Shown here one piece after another: positions 12,245 through 58,255 of a stretch of 64,000 bases of DNA. The position numbers and the translations under genes are program-made. The DNA lies in IMG/VR virus record IMGVR_UViG_3300045988_151230; one strand, 5' to 3'. How positions within the stretch are numbered: position 1 is the stretch's first letter; each line of letters opens with the position of its first letter. The notes under the pieces were generated by a model that saw only the letters and a list, made by a program, of their open reading frames with translations, was not told the DNA's origin and ran no database searches. The DNA comes from a virus. Taxonomy: Duplodnaviria > Heunggongvirae > Uroviricota > Caudoviricetes.

Positions 12245-12838
12245 CTAAGCAGCCTTCTTTGATGGTCTTTTTTTCCTGATCACATTCGCAGGATCATACC
12301 CTCCCAGACTTTTCATGACGTCCAAAGGGATCTTGCTTATAGAGTGCCCAGCGTCCTGACAGAATCCTCGAAAAACAACGAGCATACTGCCACCTGGGTT
12401 GATGTTTACTTCTACCTGACCCAGATTTACGTCAGGCTCGACAAACGCTACGCGGCCACCAGACAGAATAATCGTCTCATTCGCACACTCTGTTGCACGC
12501 TCATACCACTTTGTATCTAGGGATTGAGGAATTAGCATCACTGTTGTAACTCCGCGAGCCTGCTCACGTATAGCCGCATCAATCCAGGGGTAGATTTTGG
12601 AGTAGGGTGGATTGAGGAAGGCAATTGTACCTGGCTGTCCCCATTCAGATTTCAAAGCATCACGCTCAACGCCTATGAAATTAGGCAGCTTTGCATTGTC
12701 CTTGTTGCAGGCAACGTCAACATCAAATGTCACTCCAAGATAACGTTGAATGGCAGAAAACAGCCAGTCAGGTGTTCTCCAGAGGTCACGAAGAGAGTTG
12801 TCGCGCTTTCGCTGTTTGATTTTTTCGGCTGCAATCAT
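12245..12838 (-). CDS. phage-type DNA N6-adenine methyltransferase (Dam-like)
   Basis: 197-aa ORF; WRTPDWLF and FLNPPYS motifs. Confidence 0.75.
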   Translation of the reverse strand: MIAAEKIKQRKRDNSLRDLWRTPDWLFSAIQRYLGVTFDVDVACNKDNAKLPNFIGVERDALKSEWGQPGTIAFLNPPYSKIYPWIDAAIREQARGVTTVMLIPQSLDTKWYERATECANETIILSGGRVAFVEPDVNLGQVEVNINPGGSMLVVFRGFCQDAGHSISKIPLDVMKSLGGYDPANVIRKKRPSKKAA

Positions 12839-12850
12839 CTTCTTTCTCGA

Positions 12851-12869
12851 TAGGTAAGTATATACCTAT
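12851..12869. repeat. AT-rich palindrome TAGGTAAGTATATACCTAT
   Basis: 13 bp upstream of the Dam-like gene start; near-identical copy at 28404-28423. Confidence 0.45.
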
Positions 12870-13021
12870 TTTTGCATTTGATTTTATGTCTGGCAATCAA
12901 ATAAAACGCGCCAGAAATGCAAACGAGAAGCTCTCTGGCGCGTTTTTGTGGTGCTGGGTATGTGATTGGCTTACCCAGTACTATAAAGCTCTCTATGGGC
13001 TTTATTTTAAGTAGGGGAACG

Positions 13022-13831
13022 TCATCCAATAGTGTACTCCGCGACAAACTTCTTAACGATCGGTGATTCTTCGTTCAATGTTAGATTTCCACCGTCTCTA
13101 ACGGCAATTCCTGTCGCTGGAAATACAGCCATCATTTGCCCAGCCTGAGTTGACGCAGTATTAAGCGGATACGGTTTTTCTGGATTGCTCATTAAAGCAA
13201 TCTTAATACTATTACTTGTAGCCTTCTTTTCTGTGAGAAGGTGTCTCATGGAAATTACCGTGTAAACACTAATATCTGGACCTCCGCTAAACCAATTAAG
13301 AAGGTTTAATATCTTATCCTTTGCTTTGACAGGCGCGTTATCGTAAGCGTCTAAGAAAATATCTTTTTCTAAGCCCGCTTTATTGAAAAACGAATCATCT
13401 TTATCACTTAAAGTAAAACGAGGACCTCTTGCAGTACGAGCTTTTTTATTTGTATTGCTATCATTTGACTGTTGAACTTTTAATTCATCATTAACCTCAA
13501 CACACTCTTCAACCTCAATAAATCCCAATTGTTCTGGCTCGTTTTCGGCAGCTTCAACACTTTCAGCGTTAATTACGTTTATAGGCTCATGCGCTAACTC
13601 CAACTCATTTAAAGCAGAGCTGAAATCACCTGCTTTTTCTTCATTGAACAGTTCTTCGGCAACATCATCAGAACTCATGGCTACGCCAGCATCTAGGCCG
13701 AGCAGCAGATCGTCAATATCATCAGTATTTTCAACCTGTGCAGCTTTTTTTACTGGTTCATCAAGTGATTGCAACATGGCTGTCAGCTCGTCCAGATCAT
13801 CATTTGTCATTACATTTTCAACCGAACTCAT
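13022..13831 (-). CDS. hypothetical acidic protein
   Basis: 269-aa ORF rich in D/E. Confidence 0.45.
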   Translation of the reverse strand: MSSVENVMTNDDLDELTAMLQSLDEPVKKAAQVENTDDIDDLLLGLDAGVAMSSDDVAEELFNEEKAGDFSSALNELELAHEPINVINAESVEAAENEPEQLGFIEVEECVEVNDELKVQQSNDSNTNKKARTARGPRFTLSDKDDSFFNKAGLEKDIFLDAYDNAPVKAKDKILNLLNWFSGGPDISVYTVISMRHLLTEKKATSNSIKIALMSNPEKPYPLNTASTQAGQMMAVFPATGIAVRDGGNLTLNEESPIVKKFVAEYTIG

Positions 13832-13988: not shown

Positions 13989-14546
13989 TTACACAATTTC
14001 AGAGGGTAATTTAAAAAATCCGTACTTATTACGTGCCTTAAAGAAGCATTGCATCATTAAGTTTGTGTCATATAAGGCACTATGTGCTTTGGCATGATCG
14101 TATATAAAGCCAAGAGAGAAGGCCAACTCTTCAAGGCGGGGACGTTTACCGTCTTCTGTGGCCCACAATCCCGATAACATAGTATCTATAACAGGAACTT
14201 CTGGCAGTCTTACTCCATACCCTGAAAACTCGTGTCGAATAAATGGTATATCAAATGCTTCGCCGTTATGAGCAACCCACACACTACATGCCCCCATATA
14301 AGCGCCAATTTCGCTGGCATGATTTGACAACAAAGGTTCAGCTGCGAGCTGTTCCAATGAAATGCCATGAACGGCTTGAGCTTTCGGATCTATGTTTCTG
14401 CGAGGGTTAAAACGCATCTCCAGACTATCAATATGTCTCTGTGTCTCCAGTTCATAGCGGGTAATTGCGATTTCAATAATTTTATGACCAGCAAGGAAAT
14501 CCAGTCCCGTAGACTCGATATCGATGCCTGCAACAATCGTTGTCAT
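13989..14546 (-). CDS. DnaQ-like 3'-5' exonuclease (DEDDh family)
   Basis: Exo I DIESTG, Exo II HNGEAFDIPF, Exo III HSALYD. Confidence 0.8.
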   Translation of the reverse strand: MTTIVAGIDIESTGLDFLAGHKIIEIAITRYELETQRHIDSLEMRFNPRRNIDPKAQAVHGISLEQLAAEPLLSNHASEIGAYMGACSVWVAHNGEAFDIPFIRHEFSGYGVRLPEVPVIDTMLSGLWATEDGKRPRLEELAFSLGFIYDHAKAHSALYDTNLMMQCFFKARNKYGFFKLPSEIV

Positions 14547-15036: not shown

Positions 15037-15681
15037 CTAATGAACGGTCACTCGGCCACAGAACCGGTTTTCTATCTTTTCTACAGCGTTATCTAGCATT
15101 CTCATCACTGATCTGGCTCTTGCTTCAACTGTGCGATACCGGTTGGAAACGACGAAGGTTTGCAGATCTCCCCTTTGCGGATGCAGGTGAATTTTTGTCA
15201 GTTCCCCGCACATCAACGCATCAATACGAGCGACATACAGACGGTCTAATGATGCTCGTTGTGACCGCAAGTAATCTCGCTCTGAGAGAGCGACCCCCGG
15301 GCGTAGGCCAGCAATGGCGTTAAAGTTTGAAATAGCAGTTTTGTGGCAAAACTTTTCGATATCGAGGGCTAACTCAATACACCGATCTTCATTTGTATGG
15401 CCGACCAAATCCAACGTGTAGGCCATAACATCAGCAGGTGTGCGATCGATAACAAAGCCTTCAGCACCACGCGTAAGTAGCTCTATATGCTTTGCTATTT
15501 CCATTTGAATCTGAAGCCGCTCATATAGAGGCATAGAATCACCTACTCGAACACCGAGGCGGCTCATCAAACTTCCGACACCAGCATCCACGTAAGGGAT
15601 TCCGTAATGTTTGTCGATATATTTAGCCAGGGTTGTTTTCCCACTGCCCTGAGCACCAGTGATCCCAATCCGGTAATCCAT
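15037..15681 (-). CDS. P-loop NTPase, possible (deoxy)nucleotide kinase
   Basis: Walker A GAQGSGKTT near the N-terminus; sits among nucleotide-metabolism genes. Confidence 0.5.
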   Translation of the reverse strand: MDYRIGITGAQGSGKTTLAKYIDKHYGIPYVDAGVGSLMSRLGVRVGDSMPLYERLQIQMEIAKHIELLTRGAEGFVIDRTPADVMAYTLDLVGHTNEDRCIELALDIEKFCHKTAISNFNAIAGLRPGVALSERDYLRSQRASLDRLYVARIDALMCGELTKIHLHPQRGDLQTFVVSNRYRTVEARARSVMRMLDNAVEKIENRFCGRVTVH

Positions 15682-16157
15682 TACGACCTTCTGTATACGA
15701 TCTGCGAAAAGCCAGGCTCTTCCTCGCTGGCTCGTTGGGTATAAGCTGTTTCAACAGGCACAAAGCCTAAATTACGCATCATGCTTGCCGGGAAGAATGC
15801 ATCGGCGTTTGGCACATCAACGCCGATGTGGGAGAGCCAAATCTCTTCAACATGCGGCATGAATAGCGAGTAAATTTGTTCCCCGCCAATCACCCACACA
15901 GGCTCTGGTAATCGCAACACATCATCCACACCAGCAGGGTAGAATCCATTTGGTACAAAGCCATGAGAGCGCGTCAAAACGAGGTTATGACGCTCTGGAA
16001 GAGGGCGTTTGAGACTTTCCATCGTTTTACGCCCCATAACGACAGTGGCGTTTTTGGTGAGTCTCTTAAATAGCTTCAGATCGGTAGAACAACGCCAGGG
16101 CAGTTCGTTCGCTATGCCGATCTCATAGTTACGGCCAACAGCAGCTATCATCTTCAT
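15681..16157 (-). CDS. dihydrofolate reductase
   Basis: MIAAVGRNYEIGIANELPW...VVMGRKTMESL...WVIGGEQIY pattern. Confidence 0.85.
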   Translation of the reverse strand: MKMIAAVGRNYEIGIANELPWRCSTDLKLFKRLTKNATVVMGRKTMESLKRPLPERHNLVLTRSHGFVPNGFYPAGVDDVLRLPEPVWVIGGEQIYSLFMPHVEEIWLSHIGVDVPNADAFFPASMMRNLGFVPVETAYTQRASEEEPGFSQIVYRRS

Positions 16158-16564
16158 TTGCTCACCTCATAGATGACCGGTCTATGATGAGAGTCAGCTA
16201 AAGCGGCACGGAGTCGAGGATCGTGCACCAGCGCAGCGATAAGCAGATCGCCTTTATGCTCCGCTAATGTGCGCTTAATATGCTTCTCATAACTAGTGCT
16301 ATTCGGTACGAGGTGAAGCCAGTCGTAATCAACACCAAAATCTTTCAGCCATCGTTTAGTGGGCGCTTCAAGAGTTTCAGAGCGGCTACTGATAAGCACC
16401 ACTTCAGCCCCTGAGCGAGCAAAACCACGCAACATACGGCTGGTGGGGAAAATGAGTTCATCACCGGCAATGAATTGGCCTGCATCCGAGTCAGATACAG
16501 ATTTACGATGGCTGGTATTTGCCAGCACACCTTCAATTTCGCATAAGACATACATACCTCTTGC
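16154..16564 (-). CDS. hypothetical protein
   Basis: Start taken at MARGMYV, overlapping the thymidylate synthase stop by a few bases. Confidence 0.4.
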   Translation of the reverse strand, partial: ARGMYVLCEIEGVLANTSHRKSVSDSDAGQFIAGDELIFPTSRMLRGFARSGAEVVLISSRSETLEAPTKRWLKDFGVDYDWLHLVPNSTSYEKHIKRTLAEHKGDLLIAALVHDPRLRAALADSHHRPVIYEVSK

Positions 16565-16568
16565 CATA

Positions 16569-17699
16569 TCACACCGCCACTGGAACCTTGATCCACGGTA
16601 GAGGGGCATAGCCAAGAATAAGAATCTCGTCCCATTTGAAATCATCCAGCTCAGACCATTCATTAGGGAATATAACGACCGGATCTGAATGCTCTGGAGC
16701 CTGTCGTTGCATTAGCTCACACACACCTTCCATGTGGTTGTTGTACAAATGCACGTCAAAGCCAAAATGCACAAATGCACCGGCCATGTGACCCGTAATC
16801 TTCGCGAGAAAATGAGTGAGAATGCCATAGCCAGCAATATTGAATGGCATACCAACAAAAGTGTCTACGCTACGCTGTACGAGGCAGGAGTTGAGGATGC
16901 GTTTGGGGATTCCAAGTTCATCCAGTTCAGTTTCAGTAACACTGCCGTCCATCTCCAGATCGTATAGCATCTTGGTGTAGATAGACTCATAACCGAGGCG
17001 ACTGTGTTGAAGACCAATGTCAGTTGCCATCGTTAAACGGGTTTCAAAATCCAGTTCACGACTCCACAAAGAGAAGACAAAGTGGCAAGGTGGCAGTTTC
17101 ATATCCTCAAGCTCGCCTACGTTCCATGCGTTAAGCATGATGCGACGATCGGTAGGGTTCGTGCGCAGTGTATCGACAATACGCTGTAGCTGATCGATTT
17201 CACGGGACAGCACTACGCGATCTTCACTGATACCCAGGTATCCCTCGACTTTGTACCCGCGTTCACGGAAAGTAGCGATCTTGCTCAGATATTCACTATG
17301 GCTCACGATGCGGGTATCTTCCCATCGACGCCACTGCTTACCGTAAACCGGCCCCAAATCGCCATTCTCATCGGCCCATGCATCCCAAATCTTAACGCCG
17401 TTATCCTTGAGAAATTGGATGTTGCCCGTGCCTTTCAGATACCACTCAAGTTCGACAAGCAGTGGCTTAAGATTTACCGCCTTTCCAGAAATAAGCGGCA
17501 CAGTCCCACCAGTAAGCATGTAGTAAGAGGGAACGTAGCAGGTGCTTAAAGTACCAGTGCCTGTGCGATCATCAGCCTGCACGCCGCTTTTAAGCACCGT
17601 CTCAATAACTTTTGCATACGATGCGTTTGTTACCTGACCGTTCGTATGCTCACGATTCAAAAGGAGTGACACAAAAACCTCACAAAGATAAGTAACCAC
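16569..17699 (-). CDS. thyA: thymidylate synthase with insertions
   Basis: DRTGTGTLS, WADENGDLGPVYGKQWR, NAWNVGELEDMKLPPCH, PFNIAGY motifs; exact start uncertain (track start is GTG). Confidence 0.85.
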   Translation of the reverse strand: MVTYLCEVFVSLLLNREHTNGQVTNASYAKVIETVLKSGVQADDRTGTGTLSTCYVPSYYMLTGGTVPLISGKAVNLKPLLVELEWYLKGTGNIQFLKDNGVKIWDAWADENGDLGPVYGKQWRRWEDTRIVSHSEYLSKIATFRERGYKVEGYLGISEDRVVLSREIDQLQRIVDTLRTNPTDRRIMLNAWNVGELEDMKLPPCHFVFSLWSRELDFETRLTMATDIGLQHSRLGYESIYTKMLYDLEMDGSVTETELDELGIPKRILNSCLVQRSVDTFVGMPFNIAGYGILTHFLAKITGHMAGAFVHFGFDVHLYNNHMEGVCELMQRQAPEHSDPVVIFPNEWSELDDFKWDEILILGYAPLPWIKVPVAV

Positions 17700-17843: not shown

Positions 17844-18713
17844 TTATTTTTTGATCATTCCGTACATTGCTGAGGCTTTAGCTTGCTCAACAAAGGAGGA
17901 TAAATCGACATCACTATAGGTTGGAGACTTCAGAATCTTTCCATCGGAAATTCGAAAACCGATCATCTTATCGGTGCCATCAGCATGGCGAAATCCCAGG
18001 TCAGAAGAGTCGTATTTGCAGTTGGCCACAGCATGGCGACGCTCTTCGGCATCTGCAGGCCATAATTTTGTCATGTTGGACCGATGAATTTCGCCAACCA
18101 GCTCGACGACATTGATACCGAGAAAATCAGCCAGTCGATAAGTCATCATGCACGCCACATAGATTTTGTTCATTACACGGCGCAGTTCCTGAATCAGCTC
18201 AGAATCCTTAACAGTCTTCTTCTCAAGTTTATCTGCCAGCTCTTCGAGCATACATGACGCCTCACGAGCTTCCTGAAATGGCATTGCCATATCATCGAAA
18301 ACAGTGTTACCAGGCACAAAAATTGTCTGCATAAAGCGATCAATGCTCTGTTCCTGCGTGTAATAAGTCATGCCGGTAGAAATACCACCTTTGATGGCGA
18401 CCATCGTACCAACACCAACGTATAAAAAGTCGGCCATTGCATCCAGCAGTTGCTCAATATCCCCATTCATTGCGGCTGGAATACCTTCCACTACAGCTTC
18501 TTCATGAATCAGGCTTGCACGGAGACGAAGCAGCTCTGGTGTCGGCATAACGCGTCTCGGATGCTGGAAGAGTTCATGAAACTGATCGACCATCTTGTAA
18601 ATACTTTCAGTGGCTACACCATGGCCTTCATGCAACTCATATGGTTCTGGCTTAAATCCAATGAGTCGATCGGTGGCAAGTTTCAGGTGGTCAGTCAGTT
18701 TGGTAAAGTTCAT
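17844..18713 (-). CDS. possible MazG-like nucleoside triphosphate pyrophosphohydrolase
   Basis: 289-aa ORF with two helical EExxE...D-like segments; weak motif-level call. Confidence 0.4.
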   Translation of the reverse strand: MNFTKLTDHLKLATDRLIGFKPEPYELHEGHGVATESIYKMVDQFHELFQHPRRVMPTPELLRLRASLIHEEAVVEGIPAAMNGDIEQLLDAMADFLYVGVGTMVAIKGGISTGMTYYTQEQSIDRFMQTIFVPGNTVFDDMAMPFQEAREASCMLEELADKLEKKTVKDSELIQELRRVMNKIYVACMMTYRLADFLGINVVELVGEIHRSNMTKLWPADAEERRHAVANCKYDSSDLGFRHADGTDKMIGFRISDGKILKSPTYSDVDLSSFVEQAKASAMYGMIKK

Positions 18714-18790: not shown

Positions 18791-19933
18791 TTACAGGTCT
18801 GCAAACTGGCTTAGAGAAGCCTTATCCACGGTAGAATCGATCTGACCTACCAGATATGTGCTCTGCTCTGCCTCTTGTGGTGCAATTTGCAGTGTGTCGG
18901 TTAACAACCACTTGTTCATCCAGACCAGCGGATCAGTGGTAACTTCTGGAAATAAAGCCTTCAGGCCAAGACGATTCATAGCCAGATTGGTGCGGTATTT
19001 TACATAGGTTTTGAGAATATCCGCGTTTAAACCAATCATCGAACCGTCTTTGAAGAGATAGTCGGCCCAGTTCATTTCTTGTTCGGCGACTGATTTCATG
19101 GTGTCGTAAATGACGTTTTCTTCATCAGCAGCAATCTCTTTCCACAATAAACCTTCGCGACCGGTACGCATGAAGCGGATCATGCGTTCAGTTCCTTCGC
19201 AATGCAGAGCTTCATCACGGGCAATAAAGCGCATAATTTTGGTGTTACCCTCAAGCAACTTCCGTTCACCAAAGGCAAACGTACATGCAAAACTTACGTA
19301 GAAACGGATCGCCTCAAGCGCATTAATGGACACCAACGTGCGGAAAAGCTGACGATGCAAAGGGTATGGCTCCCAGCCATATTCATTTACGTACAGACGC
19401 TCAAATTCCTTCTCACCTAACGACTGGCGCTCGCAGGTCATCCCATAAAGCCTGTCATATTCAGCAGAGATACTGATCGCTCGGTTGATGATTTCTTCAT
19501 CCGTAACAATACCGTCAAAAACAATGCTCGGATCGTCCACCATGCCACGAATAATGTGGGTGTAGCTGCGGCTATGGATAGTCTCAGAGAAAGACCATGT
19601 TTCAACCCACGTTTCCAGTTCAGGAATAGAGATAAGCGGCAGCAGCGTTGCATTTGGGCTACGTCCCTGAACTGAATCGAGTAACGTTTGATAACGGAGA
19701 TTGCTCAGAAAAATGTGACGTTCGTGGTCCCGCAGCTTCGTGTTGAAGTCGATACGATCGCTCGAAATATCAACTTCTTCCGGCCGCCAGAAGAAAGACA
19801 ATTGACGTTCAATCAACTTTTCAAAATCACGGTATTTTTGCTGATCGTAACGTGCCACGTTGACAGATTGTCCGAGGAACATAGGCTCTTTGGTTGCATC
19901 ATTAGCACCCAAACGGAACGTTGAATATGACAT
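18791..19933 (-). CDS. nrdB: ribonucleotide reductase class Ia beta subunit
   Basis: Collinear with E. coli NrdB ([30 protein letters not shown]-terminal SQFADL). Confidence 0.9.
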
Positions 19934-20018: not shown

Positions 20019-21338
20019 GGGGATATCCCCTGAGGGATCCCCAGAAAATTTAGTAAACCATTATCATATTGGTATACCGTTGCTGTAGAACTTTCAGCCC
20101 TGCGTCAAGTGACAGTGTGTTTAGTATGAGTGGAGAATGTCGAATCACATTCTCCGCCAGTTTTAATAACGAGATGACTCGCCTGTGCTTCACTGTATTT
20201 GCCTGATATTTATGATGTATCCCTTTGTTTTCCAGGCTGAAACCGCTTAACCACATAATGATACTGGCTAATGTTGCGATCAGACTCAATACCGTGACCC
20301 GCCCGGATGAATGACTGGCACCAAACCGTAGTCCAAATCCCCAGCGAGGATTTTTTTCATCCCTGAAATTTTGCTCAATTTGCATTCTACGGCTGTATAA
20401 TTTCATTACCTGTTTTGGCGAGAACTCAGTACTGTTTGTGAAAATAAACCATGGTGATTTCCCGGCAGTACGAGCTTTAGCCGTCACCGATGGTCTGGTT
20501 GCTCTTTCCTTCGAGCGTTTAAATCTACGACCTTTAGGCTTACTTTTATAAAGATAAAAATGCCCTTCATGTTGTGCATTTTTATCTCGACCCAGCAGGC
20601 CTTCACCTAAATAAATTGCTGTCGTTGATGCTTTTGTGCCTGAGTCCGACACCTTTTCCCAGCCATTACCAACATTGTAATAATGATTGCCCAGTACCCG
20701 GCAAATATAGGTCCAGCCACGGGAGCGGAGCTGTTGGAACCATCGCCCCTGAAAACCGGCATCTGTAATAACAATGACATCAGTCCCGGGGGAAAAGCAC
20801 TCAGCAAGCGATTCCAGAAAACGCTCATGTACATCTGCATTCGCTGTCTGTGATGATGGAACGACACAACTCATCAACGGTAAAGAACGCCCGTCACATG
20901 CCAGGCTTGCCCGCAAAAGCTGAAAACGAGAGGCATGATAAGCACTCCAGTCAATGAGTATCACAACACGAGACATTCCCCGCGTAATCTTTTGGGTAAT
21001 TCGCTGAAAAATGGTGGAAACCTCATTTTGCAAATGTCGATTCCCCAACAGTCGATCCACCCGCTTTATTTTGTTTTTAACTGATGCCGTACCGGTTAAA
21101 TGACGCCCGATACTGGTAAGTGTGAGGGAAGCGCCATTTATTACAGCATTAGTTGCGTCAATCAGTGATTTTTGACGGTAAAGATGCAAAGGGGCCAGTA
21201 TGTTGTTAAGGAAATTTTGGCATAATGAACGTGCAGGCATAGTGGTGATCTCCTTGAAATTGTTAGCACAATCAATTAGATCACATCTCACTATGCCTGT
21301 CTTGTTTTCTGGGGATTCCTCAGGGGATATCCCCCACC
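20019..21338. mobile_element. IS4-family (IS10-like) insertion sequence, about 1.3 kb; exact ends ambiguous
   Basis: Terminal inverted repeats (C)TGAGGGATCCCCAGAAAA and TTTTCTGGGGATTCCTCA(G); both junctions carry GGGGATATCCCC. Confidence 0.7.
20050..21240 (-). CDS. IS4-family DDE transposase
   Basis: KRVDRLLGNRHLQ and YSRRMQIEQNFRDEK (Y-2-R-3-E-6-K) signature close to IS10 transposase; start taken at MPARSL inside the IS. Confidence 0.8.
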   Translation of the reverse strand: MPARSLCQNFLNNILAPLHLYRQKSLIDATNAVINGASLTLTSIGRHLTGTASVKNKIKRVDRLLGNRHLQNEVSTIFQRITQKITRGMSRVVILIDWSAYHASRFQLLRASLACDGRSLPLMSCVVPSSQTANADVHERFLESLAECFSPGTDVIVITDAGFQGRWFQQLRSRGWTYICRVLGNHYYNVGNGWEKVSDSGTKASTTAIYLGEGLLGRDKNAQHEGHFYLYKSKPKGRRFKRSKERATRPSVTAKARTAGKSPWFIFTNSTEFSPKQVMKLYSRRMQIEQNFRDEKNPRWGFGLRFGASHSSGRVTVLSLIATLASIIMWLSGFSLENKGIHHKYQANTVKHRRVISLLKLAENVIRHSPLILNTLSLDAGLKVLQQRYTNMIMVY

Positions 21339-29285: not shown

Positions 29286-29290
29286 GGATA

Positions 29291-29491: not shown

Positions 29492-29511
29492 TGAATGACA
29501 AAGGTGTCCAC

Positions 29512-46689: not shown

Positions 46690-46939
46690 TCAATCAATCC
46701 ATTCTAACTTATACTATGGTAAGGAATACTACTAAAATTTATATCAATACTGAATACATTCATATCATATGCAAGTTAATTTTCTTACCTGTTTTGGGCT
46801 AATTTTTCTCCGTGCAATGGCCTTTAACCGGTCTTTTAAGTGCCTATCGAAAAAATGATAATAGCTTTACAACCCTAACCTTTGATGTAATATCGGTAAG
46901 CACTTACCAGAGAGAATTGAACGCGCAAAGGTTGTAACA

Positions 46940-48424: not shown

Positions 48425-48451
48425 ATGACAATCACCGAGTTACGCCGATTC

Positions 48452-48470
48452 ACTGTATAAGTAAACAGTA
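48452..48470. promoter_or_regulatory. LexA-box-like palindrome ACTGTATAAGTAAACAGTA
   Basis: CTGT-N8-ACAG with AT-rich spacer, 28 bp upstream of the recombinase start. Confidence 0.4.
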
Positions 48471-48522: not shown

Positions 48523-48555
48523 AATGATTCCATACATAGTAGGTATGGAATCATT
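48523..48555. repeat. lox-like site: 13-bp perfect inverted arms AATGATTCCATAC / GTATGGAATCATT around a 7-bp spacer
   Basis: Same 13-7-13 geometry as a Cre/lox-type site, about 100 bp upstream of the recombinase; single arms recur at 51542 and 52555. Confidence 0.45.
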
Positions 48556-48634: not shown

Positions 48635-48883
48635 TCAGAGGGTGCTGACGTATGCAGCCAGTTCTGTGTATCCGCCAATCGGTTGGCCATTGATCAGTAC
48701 CTGGGGGATAGTCTCTACCGGTTTACCAACAATTTCACTAAGTTTTTCCTTGTCGATACCGGCAGTGGTGATGTCGATGTACTCATAATCACCGTAGCCA
48801 TGTCCCTTTAGTTGCTTCGCCAGCTCGACCGCACGTTTGCAGTATGAACAGTTATCTCGTCCGTAGATAACGACTTTCATCAC
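48635..48883 (-). CDS. glutaredoxin / NrdH-like redoxin
   Basis: 82 aa with the CSYC active site in VVIYGRDNCSYCKRA. Confidence 0.75.
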   Translation of the reverse strand: MMKVVIYGRDNCSYCKRAVELAKQLKGHGYGDYEYIDITTAGIDKEKLSEIVGKPVETIPQVLINGQPIGGYTELAAYVSTL

Positions 48884-49047
48884 TTCACCTCGTGCAACTG
48901 CTGTTCATTAACGATGATTGTGCCAATTTCGCAGTAGTGGATACATGGTTTTGACTTCAGTGCCTGATGAGCTGCGCGACGCGCCTGTTTACGTTTGTTT
49001 CCCATATTGAGTCCTTTTAAGTGAATAATGAAAGAACTATACCGACA

Positions 49048-49075
49048 AATAATAGGTAAGTCATTACCTATTATT
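49048..49075. repeat. AT-rich palindrome AATAATAGGTAA-gtca-TTACCTATTATT
   Basis: 12-bp perfect inverted arms in the intergenic region. Confidence 0.45.
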
Positions 49076-49117
49076 TGTGCATTATCCCTCTACATAGTAG
49101 AGGGATATCGTCATGAC

Positions 49118-49930
49118 TCACGGCAGTTTTGCTCTAATTTCGAGTAATTTCTGTGCCGTTATGCTGATTTCATACGCCAGATCTTGTGTTTGGTTAATGA
49201 TTCCGTAATAGCGCTCAACCTGATCAGGATAAAAACGTCTGATATGGGGGATATCGATATAATCATAATACCCAAGCCCTCCAGCAGAATGTTCTCTGAA
49301 CAGCGCCCAAAAGTTGTTCACTTTCCCGACCAACTCCATACGGATTGTTTCTAAAACAACATCATTGAAGCTGTAAAAGGGGTTATGGGCAATATTATCA
49401 AATGCGTAGAGAGGGTCGGTAATGTCGGTGCTAACTTTTGCCCGGAACTGTTCGCTCTTCAGCATTTGGAGGTAGTTGTAATTAAAAATATCAGTAATGG
49501 CTTTTAAAACACCGACGTCTCTTTCTGAGTAATTGTTCTGACTCACCTGGTGCGTCATCTGTAGCAGAAGAGATTGTTGAGTTTCGGCCAGCTGCTTCCA
49601 GTTTTTCAATTGCTCAACGGAATAGATAGTGTAGTCAGAGTCAATGAGTGCGCCATGTGAACGACACATCCATATACCGTTATCAATCGAGCTTCGCTGT
49701 TCTGGGGTTAAGCTAGGATCATATCTCGGTCCACCTGGCGCTGCTGCTGTAATATGTGCCGCAATACCATTATTAATCCTGCTGTTTGTATCACTGCTAT
49801 CTGGACCTACAGTTGTCTGGTTGCAGCCAGGATAAGAGCACTTCCAGCCTACGCGTTCGGCTAGTGTTCGCTTCACCGATGGGGAAAAATCATCTCTGTT
49901 ACTCACATTTAACCTCGCAGTGTTAAACAA
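49118..49930 (-). CDS. HNH-motif nuclease-domain protein with a C-terminal domain of unknown function
   Basis: GWKCSYPGC ... AAHITAAAPGG ... NGIWMCRSH pattern. Confidence 0.5.
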   Translation of the reverse strand: MFNTARLNVSNRDDFSPSVKRTLAERVGWKCSYPGCNQTTVGPDSSDTNSRINNGIAAHITAAAPGGPRYDPSLTPEQRSSIDNGIWMCRSHGALIDSDYTIYSVEQLKNWKQLAETQQSLLLQMTHQVSQNNYSERDVGVLKAITDIFNYNYLQMLKSEQFRAKVSTDITDPLYAFDNIAHNPFYSFNDVVLETIRMELVGKVNNFWALFREHSAGGLGYYDYIDIPHIRRFYPDQVERYYGIINQTQDLAYEISITAQKLLEIRAKLP

Positions 49931-49937
49931 TCTATGG

Positions 49938-50492
49938 CTATTTGCGTTTGTCTTCTTTCAAGCGTGAAACTTTAATCATCTTATCGGTGATAGAAAGCAA
50001 TGTTACACCCTCTTTTTCGTTCACAAAGCCTGCACCGTTAATCACCATTACTAAACGATCCTTCCCTCGATAGACTTCATAATACTTGCCTGCACCACAG
50101 GTCTTTGTCTCAATACAGTCCATACCTGAGATAGCTTCTTGGTCGAAAATTCTGTCTTTCGTTGCTACCGGTTTTCCGTACTCCCTTGTCATCATTTCAC
50201 CGATCTGCATGAACGTATACTTACCGACATTTGTCGTTAAAGACGATTCAACCTTTCCATCAATGAGATTTCCATGCGTATGTGGTTCCTGTTCATTCGG
50301 TGCATTTTTATCTTGAAGAGCGAATACCTCAATACTGGGTGTTTGCTCTTGGAACTGGGCTTTATAGTTCTGTGCAAGATCGCTTTTATCTCTACCTATT
50401 AAGGTAATTTTGTCGATCTCCGATTCGTTACATCCCGTCAGAGCGAGCATGATTACCAGAGAGGCAAGAATATTGAGGTTGCGCTTATTCAT
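49938..50492 (-). CDS. lipoprotein
   Basis: Signal peptide MNKRNLNILASLVIMLALTGC with lipobox; start taken at the internal Met. Confidence 0.5.
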   Translation of the reverse strand: MNKRNLNILASLVIMLALTGCNESEIDKITLIGRDKSDLAQNYKAQFQEQTPSIEVFALQDKNAPNEQEPHTHGNLIDGKVESSLTTNVGKYTFMQIGEMMTREYGKPVATKDRIFDQEAISGMDCIETKTCGAGKYYEVYRGKDRLVMVINGAGFVNEKEGVTLLSITDKMIKVSRLKEDKRK

Positions 50493-50796
50493 TGGCTTAT
50501 CTCCATGTTTTTCTGCCACATCCTGTCACCCACATGCAGGCAGTCTAATGCTGCCGTTGCTAAATGAAGACCCAAAAGTGGTAAAACCATACCTGGAAAT
50601 ATTCTGGAGTCAACCCAGTAAAAAAGGGGCCGAAGCCCCTTTGAATTTTGCGCTGAAAAAAGTGTTGCTAGGATGTTAGCAAGCTATGGTTAAGAACGTC
50701 TGCCGTAATTGTCTATCACAGCGTTGAGCGGTCTGGTTTATGTTAGCGGAGTCTTAATCTGGGTGATTAAAAGGCCAAACCGCTCAACGCTGTGTC

Positions 50797-50883
50797 TGGC
50801 GGAGAGTAATGGAATCGAACCATCATCGCTTGCGCAATGGGACGGTTTTCAAGACCGCTTGAGCACCATGCTCCCTACTCTCC
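50797..50883 (-). tRNA. tRNA-Ser (anticodon UGA), class II with long variable arm
   Basis: GGAGAGT/ACTCTCC acceptor stem, anticodon loop CTTGAAA, T-loop TTCGATT, encoded CCA. Confidence 0.8.
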
Positions 50884-51100
50884 AATTGTTGTGGTTACCG
50901 GTACTGATCTCCGGCTTAGCGACCCCGGCTACTGACTGCATTGCAGTGTGTGAACTCGCCTCGTGTGTCGCTGGGGCATTTCTTTCCGCGCATCAGTCTG
51001 CGCATCAACCACAACGAAAAGAGCACTGTATGACGTTTGCACGGACTTACGCTTAAAACAGGGCAGTCTCGGCGGTTTTCAATGCTCTTTCCTGTTGTGT

Positions 51101-51176
51101 TGGTGCCGGTTAACGGACTCGAACCGCTGACATCCTGCTTACAAGGCAGGCGCTCTACCAACTGAGCTAAACCGGC
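51101..51176 (-). tRNA. tRNA-Thr (anticodon UGU)
   Basis: GCCGGTT/AACCGGC acceptor stem, D-arm GCTCAGTTGGTAGAGC, anticodon loop CTTGTAA, encoded CCA. Confidence 0.85.
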
Positions 51177-51180
51177 AATT

Positions 51181-51267
51181 TGGTGGGGAGTGATGGAGTC
51201 GAACCACCCGAGTCGCAATGACAGTAGATTTACAGTCTACACCGCTACCTCTACGGACTAACTCCCC
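51181..51267 (-). tRNA. tRNA-Tyr (anticodon GUA), class II
   Basis: GGGGAGT/ACTCCCC acceptor stem, anticodon loop CTGTAAA, long variable arm, T-loop TTCGACT, encoded CCA. Confidence 0.8.
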
Positions 51268-51272
51268 TAAAT

Positions 51273-51347
51273 TGGCGATGGTGGGTGGATTCGAACCACC
51301 GACCAGTTGGTTAACAGCCAACTGCTCTACCGCTGAGCTACACCATC
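51273..51347 (-). tRNA. tRNA-Asn (anticodon GUU)
   Basis: GATGGTG/CACCATC acceptor stem, anticodon loop CTGTTAA, T-arm GGTGGTTCGAATCCACC, encoded CCA. Confidence 0.85.
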
Positions 51348-52936: not shown

Positions 52937-54259
52937 TCATTCTTTATCTCCGATTCGATCTTCTGTATCGCGTAAGCAACGCGGCCATTTCAGTCGTGGG
53001 TGGCGTAAGCTGCCGTCCGGTGTTTTCTCGTGACAATGAACCTCGACAATACGACCACGGTACTTCTCTTTGTTGTTCCAGATCTCATCCAGATATTTAT
53101 GCTTAATGCCGCTCGCACGAACGATGACGCCGTTTTCAAGACGAATAACAATTTTTCCAAGTGTGTTGGCAAAACCAGAGTCCGGGTCGCCCGGCTCAAA
53201 GTCGATAATTTCACCATCTTCTGAATCTTCGTCTTTTAACTTCCACCAGCTGCGGGTACGTTTAAACTCGTAAACAGAGTTCGGATCTTTGCCCATCTCC
53301 CCTTCTTCGTTATCGTCCAGGCGTTTCATGAAGCGTTCGATGAAGTCTTCGTGGCTATGGATGATATAGAACGGATGCAGGTGAATGTCTTGTGTGTAGC
53401 CTTCACTGCGATCGTTTTTGAACAACGCCACCAGCATAGCCAGGCGCTCTTTCAGCTTCATACCTGTCTTTGCATACTCTTTGGATTTAGCCTGTGCTCG
53501 CCATTCCGGTAGGAAGAAGTCGAAAACATGATAAATAGCGCCAATTGCCTGCACGTTCTTTTTGCGCAATGCAGATACGGACTGGTTAAATGAACCGGCA
53601 GTTCCTTCACCATCGAAGAAGATGTGTTTGTGGCCTGAAAGTTTGCCTAATTCGAGCATTGCTGGCTTTAGGTGATCGAGAGACGTGATTGGATTACCAG
53701 TACGAGAAAGGAAGTTAACCTCTTCCTCGTCAACAATAACCTCGCAAATTACTCGCAAACCATCGAGCTTAAGACTGCCAATCATCGGCCATTTTGCTTT
53801 AGGATTTGGCTTGAAGGGGTATTTGTCGCCTTTTTCTTTATACGGTGACGCCAGCTGCACCTCGAATTTCGGAATGGGATTTTCAAAAACCTTGTTGCAT
53901 AGGCTAATCCCAACACCTGCTTTCGGGTCTTTTAAGAGGAAACGACGGAACACGTCCTGCCCATCGGCGCACATTGACGCCACGATAGACTCAACAGCTG
54001 CTATTGCTGCGTTCCCCGTTAGCTCGCGAGAGGCCAGCTTATTCAGTACATCAATGGCTTTTTCGTCACTTGGGATGGACTCACTAAGCGGCTCTGCCAC
54101 TTTGTATTTCTTTACCCCAAAACGGATGAAAGGGTTGAGCATCAATGAAACCATGCTTTGCTCGAAGTCATCCATGTTGGCCAATGCCTCTTTTTTTGCA
54201 TTGGTTCCCATAGCTTTCATTTCGTCCAGCTTATGCTTAAGTGCGATCAACTTTTTCAT
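52937..54259 (-). CDS. ATP-dependent DNA ligase
   Basis: Adenylation motif I GSLKLDGLRV (KxDG); 440 aa. Confidence 0.75.
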   Translation of the reverse strand: MKKLIALKHKLDEMKAMGTNAKKEALANMDDFEQSMVSLMLNPFIRFGVKKYKVAEPLSESIPSDEKAIDVLNKLASRELTGNAAIAAVESIVASMCADGQDVFRRFLLKDPKAGVGISLCNKVFENPIPKFEVQLASPYKEKGDKYPFKPNPKAKWPMIGSLKLDGLRVICEVIVDEEEVNFLSRTGNPITSLDHLKPAMLELGKLSGHKHIFFDGEGTAGSFNQSVSALRKKNVQAIGAIYHVFDFFLPEWRAQAKSKEYAKTGMKLKERLAMLVALFKNDRSEGYTQDIHLHPFYIIHSHEDFIERFMKRLDDNEEGEMGKDPNSVYEFKRTRSWWKLKDEDSEDGEIIDFEPGDPDSGFANTLGKIVIRLENGVIVRASGIKHKYLDEIWNNKEKYRGRIVEVHCHEKTPDGSLRHPRLKWPRCLRDTEDRIGDKE

Positions 54260-55576: not shown

Positions 55577-55654
55577 ACCAACTCCTAGCTAACAGATGAA
55601 AGTATTCTCACAGAAAGATAAGTAATCATCTACTTATTTTAAAGGTGATTGTTA

Positions 55655-56833
55655 TCATAGAGCCTTAATGCCCAAAACCTTGCTTTGTAACTCCAACTGC
55701 TTGGTATACGGTTTTGCCCGATAATAGGCTTTGATGATTTGCTCTGGCGTTGCATCGCCCGGGTCGAGTCCTTCCTCGCCCAAACACGCCACTTTGACAT
55801 TAAGACCAATACTGGTCAGTCGCCTGGCTGCGGCCATCGTGTTGCGTATAGCTTGCTTTTCACTATCCCACATCATGATCACATTACGTAATCCACGCGC
55901 CTTGAGCGTCAGGAACGCGCCTAACTGATCTTCTGCATCCTGAGTGGTGTTACCAGATAGATGCATCCCGAACGTTCCTATTGGTTCCACGTAATCACGT
56001 AATGTTTCTTCGTCAAAAATAGCTCGTTTAACCCCCATAACATCGAACGCCCCCTCACAGACAACTACAGTCTGTTTGCCGACTGCATTATGGCCGTTGT
56101 AGAGAAACTTACCTGAAGCTGGAAGTTGCATTGGAAAGAGGTAGCGGCGTTCTGCTGTACCGGTAATGTCTCGTCCCTGAAATGTCTTCATTACCCCATC
56201 CAGATCGTAAACCGGTATCAGTATTCGCATATCGAATATCTGTCCTTTAACCTGATCTGTATACGGATCTACATAGGCGTGCTTGCCTTCGACGCAGTAT
56301 CGTAGGTCAAAATACTTTGCCATTTCAGGCGATATGTTTCGTTCAACCAGATAGTCTGGAAGACGGCCATCTATAGGAAGCTCGTAATGACGAGGGAGTG
56401 CAACTGGCTCCTCTAACTCGACTGTGCTTGCAAGCACTAGCTCTTCTTTCTTTGGTGCCCACCCCTGGGAAAGAAGGGCGTTCTGCACATATTCCTCGAA
56501 CTGTCGTCGTGATTTGCCGCTGTAGTGCTTGAGGAAGACCAGCTTATTGAACTGAATCTCTTCGGGATGATCACCAGCGAAGCATTTACCGACGCCACTG
56601 GTCAGATTGAAATATACCTTCCAGTTGGAGCTGCCGCATACCGGACACTCCTTGATATTCACTTCACGACCGCGAGTACTCACGCCTCCACGTCGATAAA
56701 CGATACCTTCAGTATCCAACCATTGTTCAAAATCTAATTCGGTAATTAGCTCTTTCAGCTCGCTCACGATAATTCCACTTTTAACAGGCAATATTGTGAC
56801 CAACCTAAATGTTGATATAACATAAAGGCTCAT
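55655..56833 (-). CDS. DNA primase (zinc-ribbon plus TOPRIM)
   Basis: CPVCGSSNW...C zinc ribbon; TOPRIM VVVCEGAFDVM and MMWDSEKQ; start taken at MSLYVI, which carries the recurring leader. Confidence 0.7.
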   Translation of the reverse strand: MSLYVISTFRLVTILPVKSGIIVSELKELITELDFEQWLDTEGIVYRRGGVSTRGREVNIKECPVCGSSNWKVYFNLTSGVGKCFAGDHPEEIQFNKLVFLKHYSGKSRRQFEEYVQNALLSQGWAPKKEELVLASTVELEEPVALPRHYELPIDGRLPDYLVERNISPEMAKYFDLRYCVEGKHAYVDPYTDQVKGQIFDMRILIPVYDLDGVMKTFQGRDITGTAERRYLFPMQLPASGKFLYNGHNAVGKQTVVVCEGAFDVMGVKRAIFDEETLRDYVEPIGTFGMHLSGNTTQDAEDQLGAFLTLKARGLRNVIMMWDSEKQAIRNTMAAARRLTSIGLNVKVACLGEEGLDPGDATPEQIIKAYYRAKPYTKQLELQSKVLGIKAL

Positions 56834-56914
56834 GTGTTTTTCTTTTGTGGTTTGGCAAAAGAAAAGTTGTTTCACCAATGAATCAAGCGTGGAGGTGTTC
56901 TCCACGCTTATTTT

Positions 56915-58255
56915 TTAGGTAACGTCTAAGATTCGCTCAATGAAGCGCATTTGTTCGAGGTTTTGTTTAACGCGAATGCTGATCCCTCCCTGCTGGTTAC
57001 GTGAACCAGCAAAGTAGAGACGAGCCTCTCCTTTCGCTTCTTCTTCTTCGGTTTTGTTGATCGTTATTACCAGGTCAGCAATACGTACTTTTTCGATGTT
57101 GTCGGCAGCGTGCATCATTGTGGCAACTTCTGACGCGCCACCTTCACGGTTTGTCTGCGATGCCGTGATCCCAGCAACGTTATGCTTGTCATAAAGAGCA
57201 CGTAAATCGGTGTAGATACTACGAATGTTGGCGCGATCATCACGAAGGTCATAACTGGCACGCATCAAATCTGCGTAGTCGACAACAACCATGTCAGGCA
57301 CCATGCCATTGGCTTTCATGCTGTTAAGCATACGGTCCAGATCTGCCGGTGACATACTTCCTGACGGACGCTCAACCACCCACAAACTACCAATCCCCTT
57401 CGTGGCTCCCAACTCTGCCAACTTACGATGAACCTCATCGCGCCGTTCCACCAGCTTGGACATTTCTGTCTCCGACAATCTTGCATCAAAACGGTCGGAT
57501 AAAATGGTGGTGTGAACCTCCAGCGAGAGATACAGAACATTGTAGCCAGCAAGCGTTGCGTTTATGGAAAACTCACCCATTGCGGTCGATTTACCGGATT
57601 TAGCGAACCCCATGAAGAGCACCATTTCGCGCTTTGCCCAGCCTTTTTGGTACAGCAACCTATCGAGAAGAGGGAGTCCAGTTGTAATACTGTTTGGTAC
57701 ATACTCCTCTGAAGCCTCATATTCACGCGCTTTCAATCGCTCACTTGCGGAGGTGTAGTAGTCATAGATTCCGGTCGCTTCGTTCGATCCAATCTGCTGA
57801 ACCTTGGCCATGATTGCCATCGCCCCCTGAAAGTCGCCTTTCTCTTTCAGTTCAGCAGCCTTAATCAGAGCATCATCAAACGCTACACTTTTTGCGAAGG
57901 TTGATACCTGGTCAACCATGTACGAGGTATCGGACAATTTTTCTGCAAGAATGCGCTTAAACGCAGCAACAACATCGGCGAATAGTTCCTCACGGATAGT
58001 CTTATCGCGTTTCGCACGCTTAAGCATATCCAGAATTGCAGATGAAGAGGGCGCGCTCTTGTACATACGATAATAGCCCGAAACCATATTAACCAATATG
58101 GCATTGGCCGCATTGGCAAACTGGCTAGGCACAACCAGATCTCCCGCACGAGTAAGAAACTCGTGATCACGACAAAAATATGCCGTCAGTCTGTTCTGGA
58201 AATCTTCATCAAACTCTTCGGACAGCCCGCGTCCTGTATGGCAAAGTTCGGTCAT
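56915..58255 (-). CDS. DnaB-like replicative DNA helicase
   Basis: Walker A GFAKSGKST, Walker B VVVDYADL, RecA-fold C-terminal domain; 446 aa. Confidence 0.8.
   Translation of the reverse strand: MTELCHTGRGLSEEFDEDFQNRLTAYFCRDHEFLTRAGDLVVPSQFANAANAILVNMVSGYYRMYKSAPSSSAILDMLKRAKRDKTIREELFADVVAAFKRILAEKLSDTSYMVDQVSTFAKSVAFDDALIKAAELKEKGDFQGAMAIMAKVQQIGSNEATGIYDYYTSASERLKAREYEASEEYVPNSITTGLPLLDRLLYQKGWAKREMVLFMGFAKSGKSTAMGEFSINATLAGYNVLYLSLEVHTTILSDRFDARLSETEMSKLVERRDEVHRKLAELGATKGIGSLWVVERPSGSMSPADLDRMLNSMKANGMVPDMVVVDYADLMRASYDLRDDRANIRSIYTDLRALYDKHNVAGITASQTNREGGASEVATMMHAADNIEKVRIADLVITINKTEEEEAKGEARLYFAGSRNQQGGISIRVKQNLEQMRFIERILDVT

Follow-up and report, generated by a model that had tools for sequence, protein, structure and literature searches.

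A 64-kb phage sequence that probably represents an SSU5-supergroup phage-plasmid: phage-type replication and nucleotide-supply genes beside a P1-type replicon

The SSU5 supergroup is the largest known group of phage-plasmids, elements for which two modes of replication are the standard description (PMC11652158). E. coli elements like Cyrano are assigned to this supergroup of ~110-kb IncFIB siphoviruses, which includes the pSLy3 group of Escherichia and Shigella (PMC7969092; PMC11652158; bioRxiv 10.1101/2025.09.12.675607). For Cyrano, which is plasmid pLF82 of E. coli LF82 (OV696614.1), Misson et al. reported 5.5 plasmid copies per cell, siphovirus particles, DNase-protected genomes at a level 32-fold above contamination and a 39-fold rise after ciprofloxacin (PMC9928086). 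In the work of Pfeifer et al., mitomycin C induced four SSU5-like elements of E. cloacae, which were then packaged, and the virions were sequenced (PMC9600943). Here we consider a stretch of 64,000 nucleotides (the window) from the IMG/VR virus record IMGVR_UViG_3300045988_151230 (Caudoviricetes). An earlier reading of it, made from the letters alone (the sequence-only reading), had proposed that positions 12245-58255 carry a complete set of phage-type genes for deoxynucleoside triphosphate (dNTP) synthesis and replication on a plasmid-type replicon. Our analysis indicates, with a probability of about 85%, that the window is ~64 kb of a ~110-kb SSU5-supergroup phage-plasmid of the E. coli/Shigella lineage, whose gene content would be explained by the two modes. 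This is a re-identification of a well-described and ordinary type of element, and it adds nothing to the field, since the element belongs, as a nearly identical member, to a widespread group already in the literature; it does tell an annotator what the window is.

The assignment is carried by sequence comparison. The window is 97-99.6% identical in nucleotide sequence to phage-plasmids of the SSU5 supergroup that have been sequenced from E. coli and Shigella, and as a whole it is collinear with positions 27166-91305 of Cyrano. For the part from 12245 to 37000, identity is 98% with Cyrano, 98.5-99.6% with CMS-2020a, 98-99.6% with many ~110-kb plasmids of E. coli and Shigella (more than 250 records at 95% or above) and ~77% with Salmonella phage SSU5; the flanks outside this part match the same elements. 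By these alignments the window is grouped with pLF82 (phage Cyrano), p09EL50 (NC_018651.1), CMS-2020a and PhiR41_1. The products of the replication, recombination and dNTP genes, whose order is kept, are 96-100% identical to those of Cyrano (92% for DnaE) and 80-95% identical to those of SSU5. The long open reading frames (ORFs) between ~2 and 63 kb lie almost all on the minus strand, and the GC skew is negative nearly throughout. The resemblance to SSU5/pHCM2-like phage-plasmids that the sequence-only reading had proposed is thus borne out, with synteny to SSU5 and far closer matches among the E. coli/Shigella members; the comparison with SSU5, pHCM2 and P1 that it had recommended supports membership of the SSU5 supergroup together with a replicon of P1 type.

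Genes were assigned through Pfam, PHROG and NCBIfam profile scans, tRNAs with ARAGORN and Rfam, and defence genes with PADLOC. The replication genes are as follows (SSB, single-stranded DNA-binding protein).

10656-11330, minus strand: RNase H, outside 12245-58255 (PF00075 1e-44; phrog_531)
13989-14546, minus strand: DnaQ-like 3'-5' exonuclease of 185 amino acids, exonuclease domain only (PF00929 6e-22; 83% amino-acid identity to SSU5_086)
36532-37527, minus strand: 5'-3' exonuclease/flap endonuclease, FEN (PF02739 1.1e-24, PF01367 5e-12)
37537-38565, minus strand: T4 gp32-type SSB with an acidic C-terminal tail (PF08804 1.7e-66)
39240-42758, minus strand: DnaE-type DNA polymerase III alpha subunit, C-family (PF07733 1.3e-73, PF17657, PF14579, PF02811)
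52937-54259, minus strand: ATP-dependent DNA ligase (PF01068 5.8e-13)
55655-56905, minus strand: DnaG-type primase with zinc finger, Toprim domain and CPVC motif (PF08275, PF13155; TIGR01391 2.6e-9)
56915-58255, minus strand: DnaB-family replicative helicase (PF03796 3.6e-13; TIGR03600 phage_DnaB 4.9e-14)

Nearly every gene named in the sequence-only reading was recovered in the profile scans, the kinase-like one weakly and the RuvC-like one through PHROG only. Its word 'complete' is nevertheless too strong for the replisome, because neither the scans nor the annotations of relatives revealed a sliding clamp, a clamp loader, a topoisomerase or a recognisable helicase loader. RNase H and ParA are present as it stated, at 10656-11330 and 60807-61475, i.e. 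outside the interval to which it had assigned them; DnaE is accompanied by a DnaQ, as claimed, although the two genes stand 25 kb apart and the DnaQ-like protein consists of the exonuclease domain. Two features missing from its gene list, an insertion sequence (IS) between nrdA and nrdB and an intein in RecA, are described below. The polymerase belongs to the C family rather than to the B family, and a clamp or loader of its own is missing from the scans as well as from the Cyrano and SSU5 annotations. A regular-expression search for beta-clamp-binding motifs in DnaE, the DnaQ-like protein, the ligase, FEN and the other proteins gave none, a result that is inconclusive as to their absence.

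A translation-start context, AAGGAAAAACACATG, recurs on the minus strand at 5318, 19931, 28288, 32221, 42755 and 56830; three of the copies lie at the listed starts of nrdB (19933), sbcD (28291) and dnaE (42758).

The genes for dNTP synthesis, most of which form a leftward series, include every member of the T4-like set formed by NrdAB, glutaredoxin, thymidylate synthase and dihydrofolate reductase (DHFR), each with a Pfam match.

15037-15681, minus strand: P-loop nucleotide-kinase-like protein (AAA_28 3.4e-10; weak match to (d)CMP kinase TIGR02173, 2.7e-6, below curated cut-offs)
15681-16157, minus strand: DHFR, DfrA51-like (PF00186 1.6e-34)
16154-16663, minus strand: HAD/PNKP-phosphatase-like protein, weak (PF25109 1.5e-4, below cut-off)
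16569-17699, minus strand: thymidylate synthase ThyA with an insertion, 376 amino acids as listed, GTG start (PF00303 2.8e-78 in two stretches)
17844-18713, minus strand: MazG-like NTP pyrophosphohydrolase (PF01503 1.3e-8)
18791-19933, minus strand: ribonucleotide reductase small subunit NrdB (PF00268 4.5e-46)
20019-21334, minus strand: ISEc60-like IS of the IS4 family, ~1.3 kb, with terminal inverted repeats, between nrdA and nrdB (DDE_Tnp_1 2.3e-20; NF033591 1.2e-107)
21344-23659, minus strand: ribonucleotide reductase large subunit NrdA with ATP cone (PF02867 3e-131, PF00317, PF03477)
48635-48883, minus strand: glutaredoxin with CSYC motif (PF00462 3.8e-11)

The score of the PF00303 match identifies the thymidylate synthase as ThyA, not ThyX, and the label 'ThyX' in the Cyrano record is wrong. 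The DHFR is identical to that of Cyrano and 90.5% identical to that of SSU5, which is DfrA51, a published determinant of trimethoprim resistance; SSU5-family DHFRs confer resistance when expressed from vectors, and the four residues mutated in the DfrA51 study, A6, I13, D26 and S48, are all present here (PMC12217456). A close DfrA51 homologue is of practical interest, already published for relatives or minor. The IS was inserted 9 bp past the nrdA stop codon, in a palindrome, GGTGGGGATATCCCCCACC, with an apparent 12-bp duplication, and it splits nrdA from nrdB and the downstream mazG-like, thyA, DHFR and dnaQ-like genes. It was found at this site in no record of PLSDB or of 5,426 complete E. 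coli genomes, and Cyrano, too, is without it here. An element that brings its own dNTP synthesis and a large part of a replisome probably depends less on the state of the host in its lytic growth.

The recombination genes complete this part of the gene content.

23733-24302, minus strand: RuvC-like Holliday junction resolvase (phrog_159 3e-57, PHROG support only)
25060-26976, minus strand: SbcC-like protein (AAA_23, SMC_N, SbcC_Walker_B)
27206-28291, minus strand: SbcD-like nuclease (Metallophos)
33924-36263, minus strand: RecA-family recombinase, split by an intein (PF00154 3.3e-36, PF14528 2.4e-17, PF14890 2.1e-11)
38683-39114, minus strand: UvsY-like mediator, weak (phrog_231 8.4e-5; phrog_2058 3.3e-69, function unknown)

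The product of the recA gene reaches 779 amino acids because an intein of ~422 amino acids with a LAGLIDADG endonuclease sits within Walker A (GPPSAGK|C...HN|T). The intein is shared by the RecA of Cyrano; the recombinase gene of SSU5 is only 1077 bp long and lacks it, and the best match of its product is limited to the C-terminal residues 487-779 of the window protein. The RuvC-like protein gave no Pfam match and no meaningful match to PDB sequences, and a single-sequence AlphaFold2 model of it was unusable, with a mean predicted local distance difference test (pLDDT) score of 42; its translation shows catalytic-looking motifs, VGVDPS, FCELP and EHLADA (DPS...E...HxxD). When compared to the gp32/UvsX/UvsY/UvsW set of T4, the element has a clear gp32 homologue, a RecA-family recombinase in place of UvsX and a weak UvsY-like candidate, and a UvsW-like helicase is annotated only in relatives, outside the window. 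The combination of gp32, RecA and UvsY-like proteins suggests that lytic replication may be recombination-dependent.

The second half of the argument is the plasmid replicon, for which the following features were found.

29269-29349, plus strand: origin auxiliary region, DnaA box TTATTCACA at 29269 and GATC cluster
29391-29490, plus strand: five iterons upstream of repA, core TATGCTGTCAGCGG, incC/origin-like
29392-30606 as listed, probable ATG at 29512, plus strand: RepA initiator, Rep3/RepFIB, P1 RepA family (PF01051 5.2e-9)
30607-31137, plus strand: twelve iterons downstream of repA, incA/copy-control-like
60448-60807, minus strand: ParA partner of 119 amino acids, beside ParA and outside 12245-58255
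60807-61475, minus strand: ParA partition ATPase, outside 12245-58255 (NF041546 1.9e-33; MipZ, AAA_31)

In P1, oriR has the order DnaA boxes, GATC repeats, five incC iterons, repA and incA iterons, and an origin of this type, with RepA, iterons and DnaA box, uses the host replisome. The same organisation is seen in the window. RepA, which has the Rep3 WH1 domain (Rep3_N profile), is 43.5% identical to P1/P7 RepA over 76% of the protein (E 2e-64, tblastn), and it probably starts at the in-frame ATG at 29512, because the first 100 bp of the listed ORF are iterons; a search of PDB sequences gave no meaningful match. The iteron core is matched 16 times at no more than two mismatches, compared to 0.37 expected by chance, all on one strand and all adjoining repA, and with one more degenerate copy the total is 17. 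The densest GATC cluster of the window, with six sites within 59 bp (29291-29349), directly precedes the first array. The iteron RepA of the sequence-only reading is therefore a homologue of the P1/P7 initiator set between arrays of five and twelve iterons and, by analogy, copy number could be controlled by titration of RepA or by handcuffing at the downstream array. As to partition, the ParA match to NF041546 scores 115.7 bits, below the 180-bit equivalog cut-off, no convincing centromere-like repeats were found around parA, and an Rfam scan returned only tRNAs at gathering thresholds, with no c4-like or other regulatory RNA.

This replicon is not that of Cyrano. The segment 29379-31185, which holds RepA and the iterons, has no megablast match there, whereas the phage genes around it are ~99% identical to those of Cyrano and the backbone otherwise ~98%. 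The amino-acid identity of RepA is 48-50% with Cyrano and SSU5, 85-87% with Klebsiella phage-plasmids, 99.7% with PhiR41_1 and 100% with CMS-2020a; in p09EL50, the 2-kb RepA/iteron region is 100% identical in nucleotide sequence. These comparisons indicate that the replicon allele has been swapped within a conserved backbone. An illustration is thereby provided of the published pattern in which phage genes are conserved and plasmid genes variable (PMC7969092). In the typing of PLSDB the relatives are IncFIB, and p09EL50, with the identical replicon DNA, falls in rep_cluster_488.

The phage half proper is barely visible, as only the lysis end of the packaging, head, tail and lysis module falls within the window.

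62997-63329, minus strand: Rz-like spanin, start of the late region (phrog_1275 2.8e-25)
63398-63949, minus strand: endolysin (phrog_873 3.3e-57)

In Cyrano, p09EL50 and SSU5, a full block of terminase, portal, capsid, tape-measure, tail-fibre and lysis genes stands next to the point corresponding to the end of the window. A downstream part devoid of virion genes and of particles was what the sequence-only reading had named as fatal to it; the lysis genes at the window end, the virion module of Cyrano and p09EL50 and the inducible virions of Cyrano (PMC9928086) give no sign of such a lack, the virion half of this replicon itself lying beyond the window.

How the two halves may be used is best judged from the published transcriptome of the LF82/Cyrano lysogen, given as normalised counts, for which the floor is 4.99 and the median of Cyrano 9.8. 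Clearly expressed are RepA (133, ~14-fold above background), the putative repressor (96, ~10 times background), the ParA partner (89), ParA (50) and the recombinase (50). At background level are DnaE (10), primase (10.6), ligase (5.9), gp32 (9.1), FEN (6.6), RecA (10.2), SbcD (7.5), SbcC (11.8), NrdA (7.6), NrdB (12.9), ThyA (11.3) and DHFR (8.2), together with the major capsid protein (7.4). The switch between plasmid and phage replication that the sequence-only reading had proposed fits this pattern. In the plasmid state, the P1-type replicon would keep the element at probably few copies per cell: RepA and its origin would recruit the host replisome, to judge from P1, ParA would segregate the copies, the tyrosine recombinase and its adjacent lox-like site (see below) would back the replicon up, and the long leftward operons would stay silent. 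Upon induction, for which DNA damage is a known trigger in relatives, these operons would be expressed. The element would then make its own dNTPs through NrdAB and glutaredoxin, ThyA and DHFR, and the kinase-like and MazG-like proteins; it would use its own DnaE, DnaQ-like exonuclease, DnaB-like helicase, primase, gp32-type SSB, FEN, RNase H and ligase, and its own RecA, UvsY-like, SbcCD and RuvC-like recombination proteins. With these, and with host clamp functions still needed, the genome would be multiplied and then packaged into siphovirus particles. That the phage replisome drives lytic replication and that RepA is dispensable for it is what we infer, and the identity of any lytic origin would be reached in the same indirect way.

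Several points weigh against this two-mode account. The clamp, clamp loader and topoisomerase are unrecognised, and therefore lytic replication would still require host factors; the virion and packaging genes lie outside the visible 64 kb and were not seen; and the literature searched gave no genetic test, in this group, of the phage replisome against RepA and the host replisome in lytic replication, so that the proposed switch stands as a fit to expression rather than as a genetic demonstration. The IS, in addition, may be polar on nrdB, thyA, DHFR and the dnaQ-like gene, and a sign of decay, and one E. coli SSU5-like element was not inducible, giving no virion DNA after mitomycin C (PMC9600943). 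The last points could also be taken to mean that the element is a domesticated or decaying phage-like plasmid, which has kept the SSU5-type gene set and lost the lytic cycle, so that the replication and dNTP genes are silent cargo. For this one may cite, besides the position of the IS inside the dNTP operon and a virion half that lies beyond the window, a Klebsiella SSU5-like plasmid that was predicted to be an intact prophage, in an abstract whose available part begins to qualify that prediction (PMC8969562). But the IS is intergenic and breaks no ORF, all ORFs of the replication and dNTP set are full length and, with the exception of DnaE at 92%, 96-100% identical to those of the inducible Cyrano, and the ORFs of the lysis genes by which the window ends are intact. 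Domestication thus appears unlikely to us, if more deserving of attention than the two possibilities that follow.

One of them is that a sharp switch does not exist and that the replisome and dNTP genes of the element serve plasmid-state replication as well, for example by buffering dNTPs or by replacing host Pol III. In the Cyrano lysogen the DnaB-like helicase is indeed ~2-fold above background, and the trimethoprim resistance given by SSU5-family DHFRs from vectors (PMC12217456) makes a plasmid-state phenotype conceivable. We regard this as quite improbable: in the same lysogen DnaE, primase, ligase, gp32, NrdAB, ThyA and DHFR are near the floor, like capsid and tail genes, while RepA is strongly up, and the origin is of the kind established as using the host replisome. 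The other possibility, a strictly virulent SSU5-like phage genome rather than a plasmid prophage, starts from the facts that SSU5 was obtained as a phage, for which one abstract uses the word virulent (PMC5427195), and that close relatives have been deposited as phage genomes. It is hardly credible for a window that has RepA with iterons, ParA, a helix-turn-helix (HTH) regulator and a recombinase, the more so as the module of recombinase, regulator and orf70 is exactly what SSU5 is without, more than 250 near-identical records are bacterial plasmids, and 252 of 5,426 complete E. coli genomes include plasmids that carry the palindrome at the recombinase gene. A phage-plasmid that uses its P1-type replicon in the plasmid state and its own replication genes in the lytic state accounts best for these observations.

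The module just mentioned, together with a second predicted LexA box, leads to the sole part of this analysis that might repay an experiment. Its features are these.

1606-1995, minus strand: UmuD'-like S24 peptidase, stand-alone (PF00717 1.6e-9; phrog_811 2.7e-54)
2012-2031, minus strand: strong predicted LexA box CACTGTATGTGTATACAGTA just upstream of the UmuD'-like gene, also in Cyrano
46477-46689, minus strand: orf70, small conserved protein of unknown function (phrog_2627 4.9e-40)
46690-46939, no strand: divergent control region of 250 bp separating orf70 from the HTH regulator; contains a promoter-like TTTACA-N16-TAATAT, which is conserved, and the palindrome GGTAAG-CA-CTTACC
46940-47326, plus strand: HTH regulator, putative lysogeny repressor, without S24 domain (phrog_8 6.6e-12; HTH_19 weak)
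47321-48424, minus strand: tyrosine recombinase (PF00589 6.8e-10; phrog_1 1.1e-46)
48451-48470, minus strand: predicted LexA box TACTGTTTACTTATACAGTG, 26 bp upstream of the recombinase ATG, adjoining a promoter-like TTGATC-N17-TAATAT
48523-48555, no strand: lox/dif-like palindrome AATGATTCCATAC-ATAGTAG-GTATGGAATCATT, with 13-bp arms and a 7-bp spacer

The recombinase gene is convergent with the regulator gene, the 3' ends overlapping by 6 bp; the Cyrano counterpart of the regulator, CYRAN_45, has been named 'putative repressor' (PMC9928086). The recombinase is 83-86% identical in amino-acid sequence to its homologues in pMT1, pHCM2 and Enterobacter and Klebsiella relatives, and orf70 is 53% identical in pHCM2, pMT1 and an Enterobacter plasmid; both are absent from SSU5. 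The 33-bp palindrome lies upstream of the recombinase gene, separated by 98 bp from the ATG (48424). When the region upstream of the recombinase was aligned for the window, Cyrano, an E. hormaechei plasmid, S. Typhi pHCM2, a Y. pestis pMT1-type plasmid and a K. pneumoniae plasmid, which share only ~71-75% nucleotide identity in the recombinase region, the arms of the palindrome were invariant and its spacer variable; likewise, the arms of the LexA box (TACTGT-N8-ACAGT) and the TTGATC and TAATAT hexamers were invariant and the centre of the box variable. The sequence flanking these features varied as well. The case for LexA rests on position and on this conservation across lineages, because the count of boxes (two found, 0.9 expected) is not significant alone. 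The UmuD'-like gene preceded by its LexA box is, we presume, analogous to humD of P1. Among the complete E. coli genomes cited above, ~4.6% have the palindrome on a plasmid and none on the chromosome; since it is always plasmid-borne, a lox/dif-like site of resolution or cyclisation fits better than an attP/attB pair.

A 15-mer, AATGATTCCATACAT, was considered as a dispersed operator and rejected. It has five near-exact copies (7 matches at no more than three mismatches, compared to 2.6 expected), and those outside the region upstream of the recombinase lie in coding sequence or a listed ORF, namely at the start of a small ORF beginning MIPYI, at an internal MIPYI of another listed ORF and, in antisense orientation, inside dnaE; conservation in SSU5 was seen for two of them. 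As a candidate site, only the inverted pair at 48523-48555 was kept.

Could the recombinase module be the real input of SSU5-supergroup phage-plasmids into the choice between lysis and lysogeny? SOS derepression of the predicted LexA promoter, which is conserved from E. coli to pMT1 and pHCM2, would raise the amount of tyrosine recombinase, and this would act on the adjacent lox-like palindrome. Transcription from the recombinase promoter would in addition run antisense into the repressor gene or, alternatively, switch on the downstream same-strand orf70 as an antirepressor, and by either route the phage replisome and dNTP operons would be released. A supporting correlation is that SSU5, described as virulent in the abstract cited above, is without exactly this module: at the syntenic spot its tRNA-Asn is followed directly by the cobT-like gene, whereas relatives in the plasmid state keep recombinase, regulator and orf70. 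The published Cyrano transcriptome is double-edged in this respect. In macrophages, which are SOS-inducing according to the authors, the recombinase is up ~19-fold at 6 h compared to the medium control, and the UmuD-like gene ~9-fold; the Cyrano lytic genes nevertheless remain low and no extra virions appear (PMC9928086), which counts against the recombinase promoter being sufficient for induction. Our literature search yielded no paper tying LexA to SSU5-type elements (one co-mention concerns N15 and GIL01), and no mechanism leading from DNA damage to induction in this group. We hold the idea as doubtful, a tentative lead, but with its conserved LexA box and lox-like site it is a concrete hypothesis and a cheap one.

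The remaining genes touch less closely on replication.

12245-12838, minus strand: Dam-family N6-adenine DNA methyltransferase (PF05869 2.9e-38)
42939-44174, minus strand: CobS-like AAA+ ATPase, conserved in SSU5 (PF07728)
44270-46378, minus strand: CobT-like VWA protein, conserved in SSU5 (PF11775 3.3e-82, PF06213)
50797-51347, minus strand: tRNA cluster Asn, Tyr, Thr, Ser (ARAGORN; three confirmed by Rfam)

The CobS/CobT-like pair, which stands between the switch region and dnaE, is conserved in the supergroup and annotated as 'porphyrin biosynthesis'; a role in a replication operon is unexplained. By the tRNA cluster, 48870-50619 is a variable hot spot that is absent from Cyrano. It encodes a protein of 270 amino acids whose N-terminus resembles HNH endonucleases (PADLOC PDC-M68A 8e-25; also matches of CBASS-effector and Shedu-like type) and a lipoprotein-like ORF of 193 amino acids, and may be defence cargo. 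The ORFs of 59217-60445 and 61583-63016 (357 amino acids on the plus strand; 250 and 127 on the minus strand) match PHROG families of unknown function only, and no PADLOC model. At 6605-8290 lies a DUF4942 protein of 561 amino acids with a methyltransferase-like C-terminal part (PADLOC mad2 5e-15 and type II methyltransferase models), whose homologue in SSU5 is annotated as a DNA methyltransferase. Finally, the 5' end of metG (methionyl-tRNA synthetase, minus strand) runs off the start of the window, divergent from a gene for an ApbC/Mrp iron-sulfur carrier at 468-1568 (PF10609, 342 bits). The latter is labelled 'MinD' in Cyrano and 'ParA-like' by PHROG and is probably not a partition gene; metG and apbC are presumably neighbours on the E. 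coli chromosome too.

Set against known systems, the element resembles P1 in its replicon and T4 in its gene content for dNTP synthesis and replication, and it departs from both. With P1 it shares a homologous RepA (43.5%, E 2e-64), the logic of the origin (DnaA box, GATC cluster, five iterons, repA and then a downstream iteron array), a tyrosine recombinase adjoining an inverted-repeat site with a short spacer and, as annotated in Cyrano, a Cra-like ORF. P1, however, is a myovirus; its virion module is unrelated, it lacks the NrdAB/ThyA/DHFR/DnaE gene set, and its lytic replicon is repL/oriL under C1, a repL-like function not having been identified in the window. As in T4, NrdAB, glutaredoxin, thymidylate synthase and DHFR occur together, along with a gp32-type SSB and a RecA/UvsX-class recombinase with a UvsY-like mediator; the UvsW-like helicase annotated in Cyrano lies outside this window. 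Where T4 has the B-family polymerase gp43, the element has a bacterial DnaE of the C family, there is no gp45/gp44-62 clamp system and no dCMP hydroxymethylase, and the element would be temperate and plasmid-borne.

The SSU5_pHCM2 group is much closer: the replication, recombination and dNTP module is syntenic (80-95% amino-acid identity), ParA is 91% identical and the architecture is generally alike. The distance is seen in a nucleotide identity of only ~77-85%, in RepA (49%), and in SSU5 itself, whose recombinase gene is without intein and in whose genome homologues of the tyrosine recombinase, HTH regulator, orf70 and glutaredoxin are found nowhere; pHCM2, unlike SSU5, has the recombinase module. 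The closest systems remain Cyrano, CMS-2020a, PhiR41_1 and p09EL50. Cyrano differs by another allele of RepA and iterons, by the lack of the IS between nrdA and nrdB and of the fourth tRNA (Tyr), and by replaced cargo at 48870-50619, 59217-60445 and 61583-63016, a KacT toxin-antitoxin pair being among the Cyrano content where the window has other cargo; the DnaE of the window is, in addition, partly mosaic (92% amino-acid identity). Otherwise the window is closely similar to these relatives, with 97-99.6% nucleotide identity over most of the window in the same gene order, 96-100% amino-acid identity for almost all genes of the replication and dNTP set, and an intein-bearing RecA, the recombinase/regulator/orf70 module and both LexA boxes in common.

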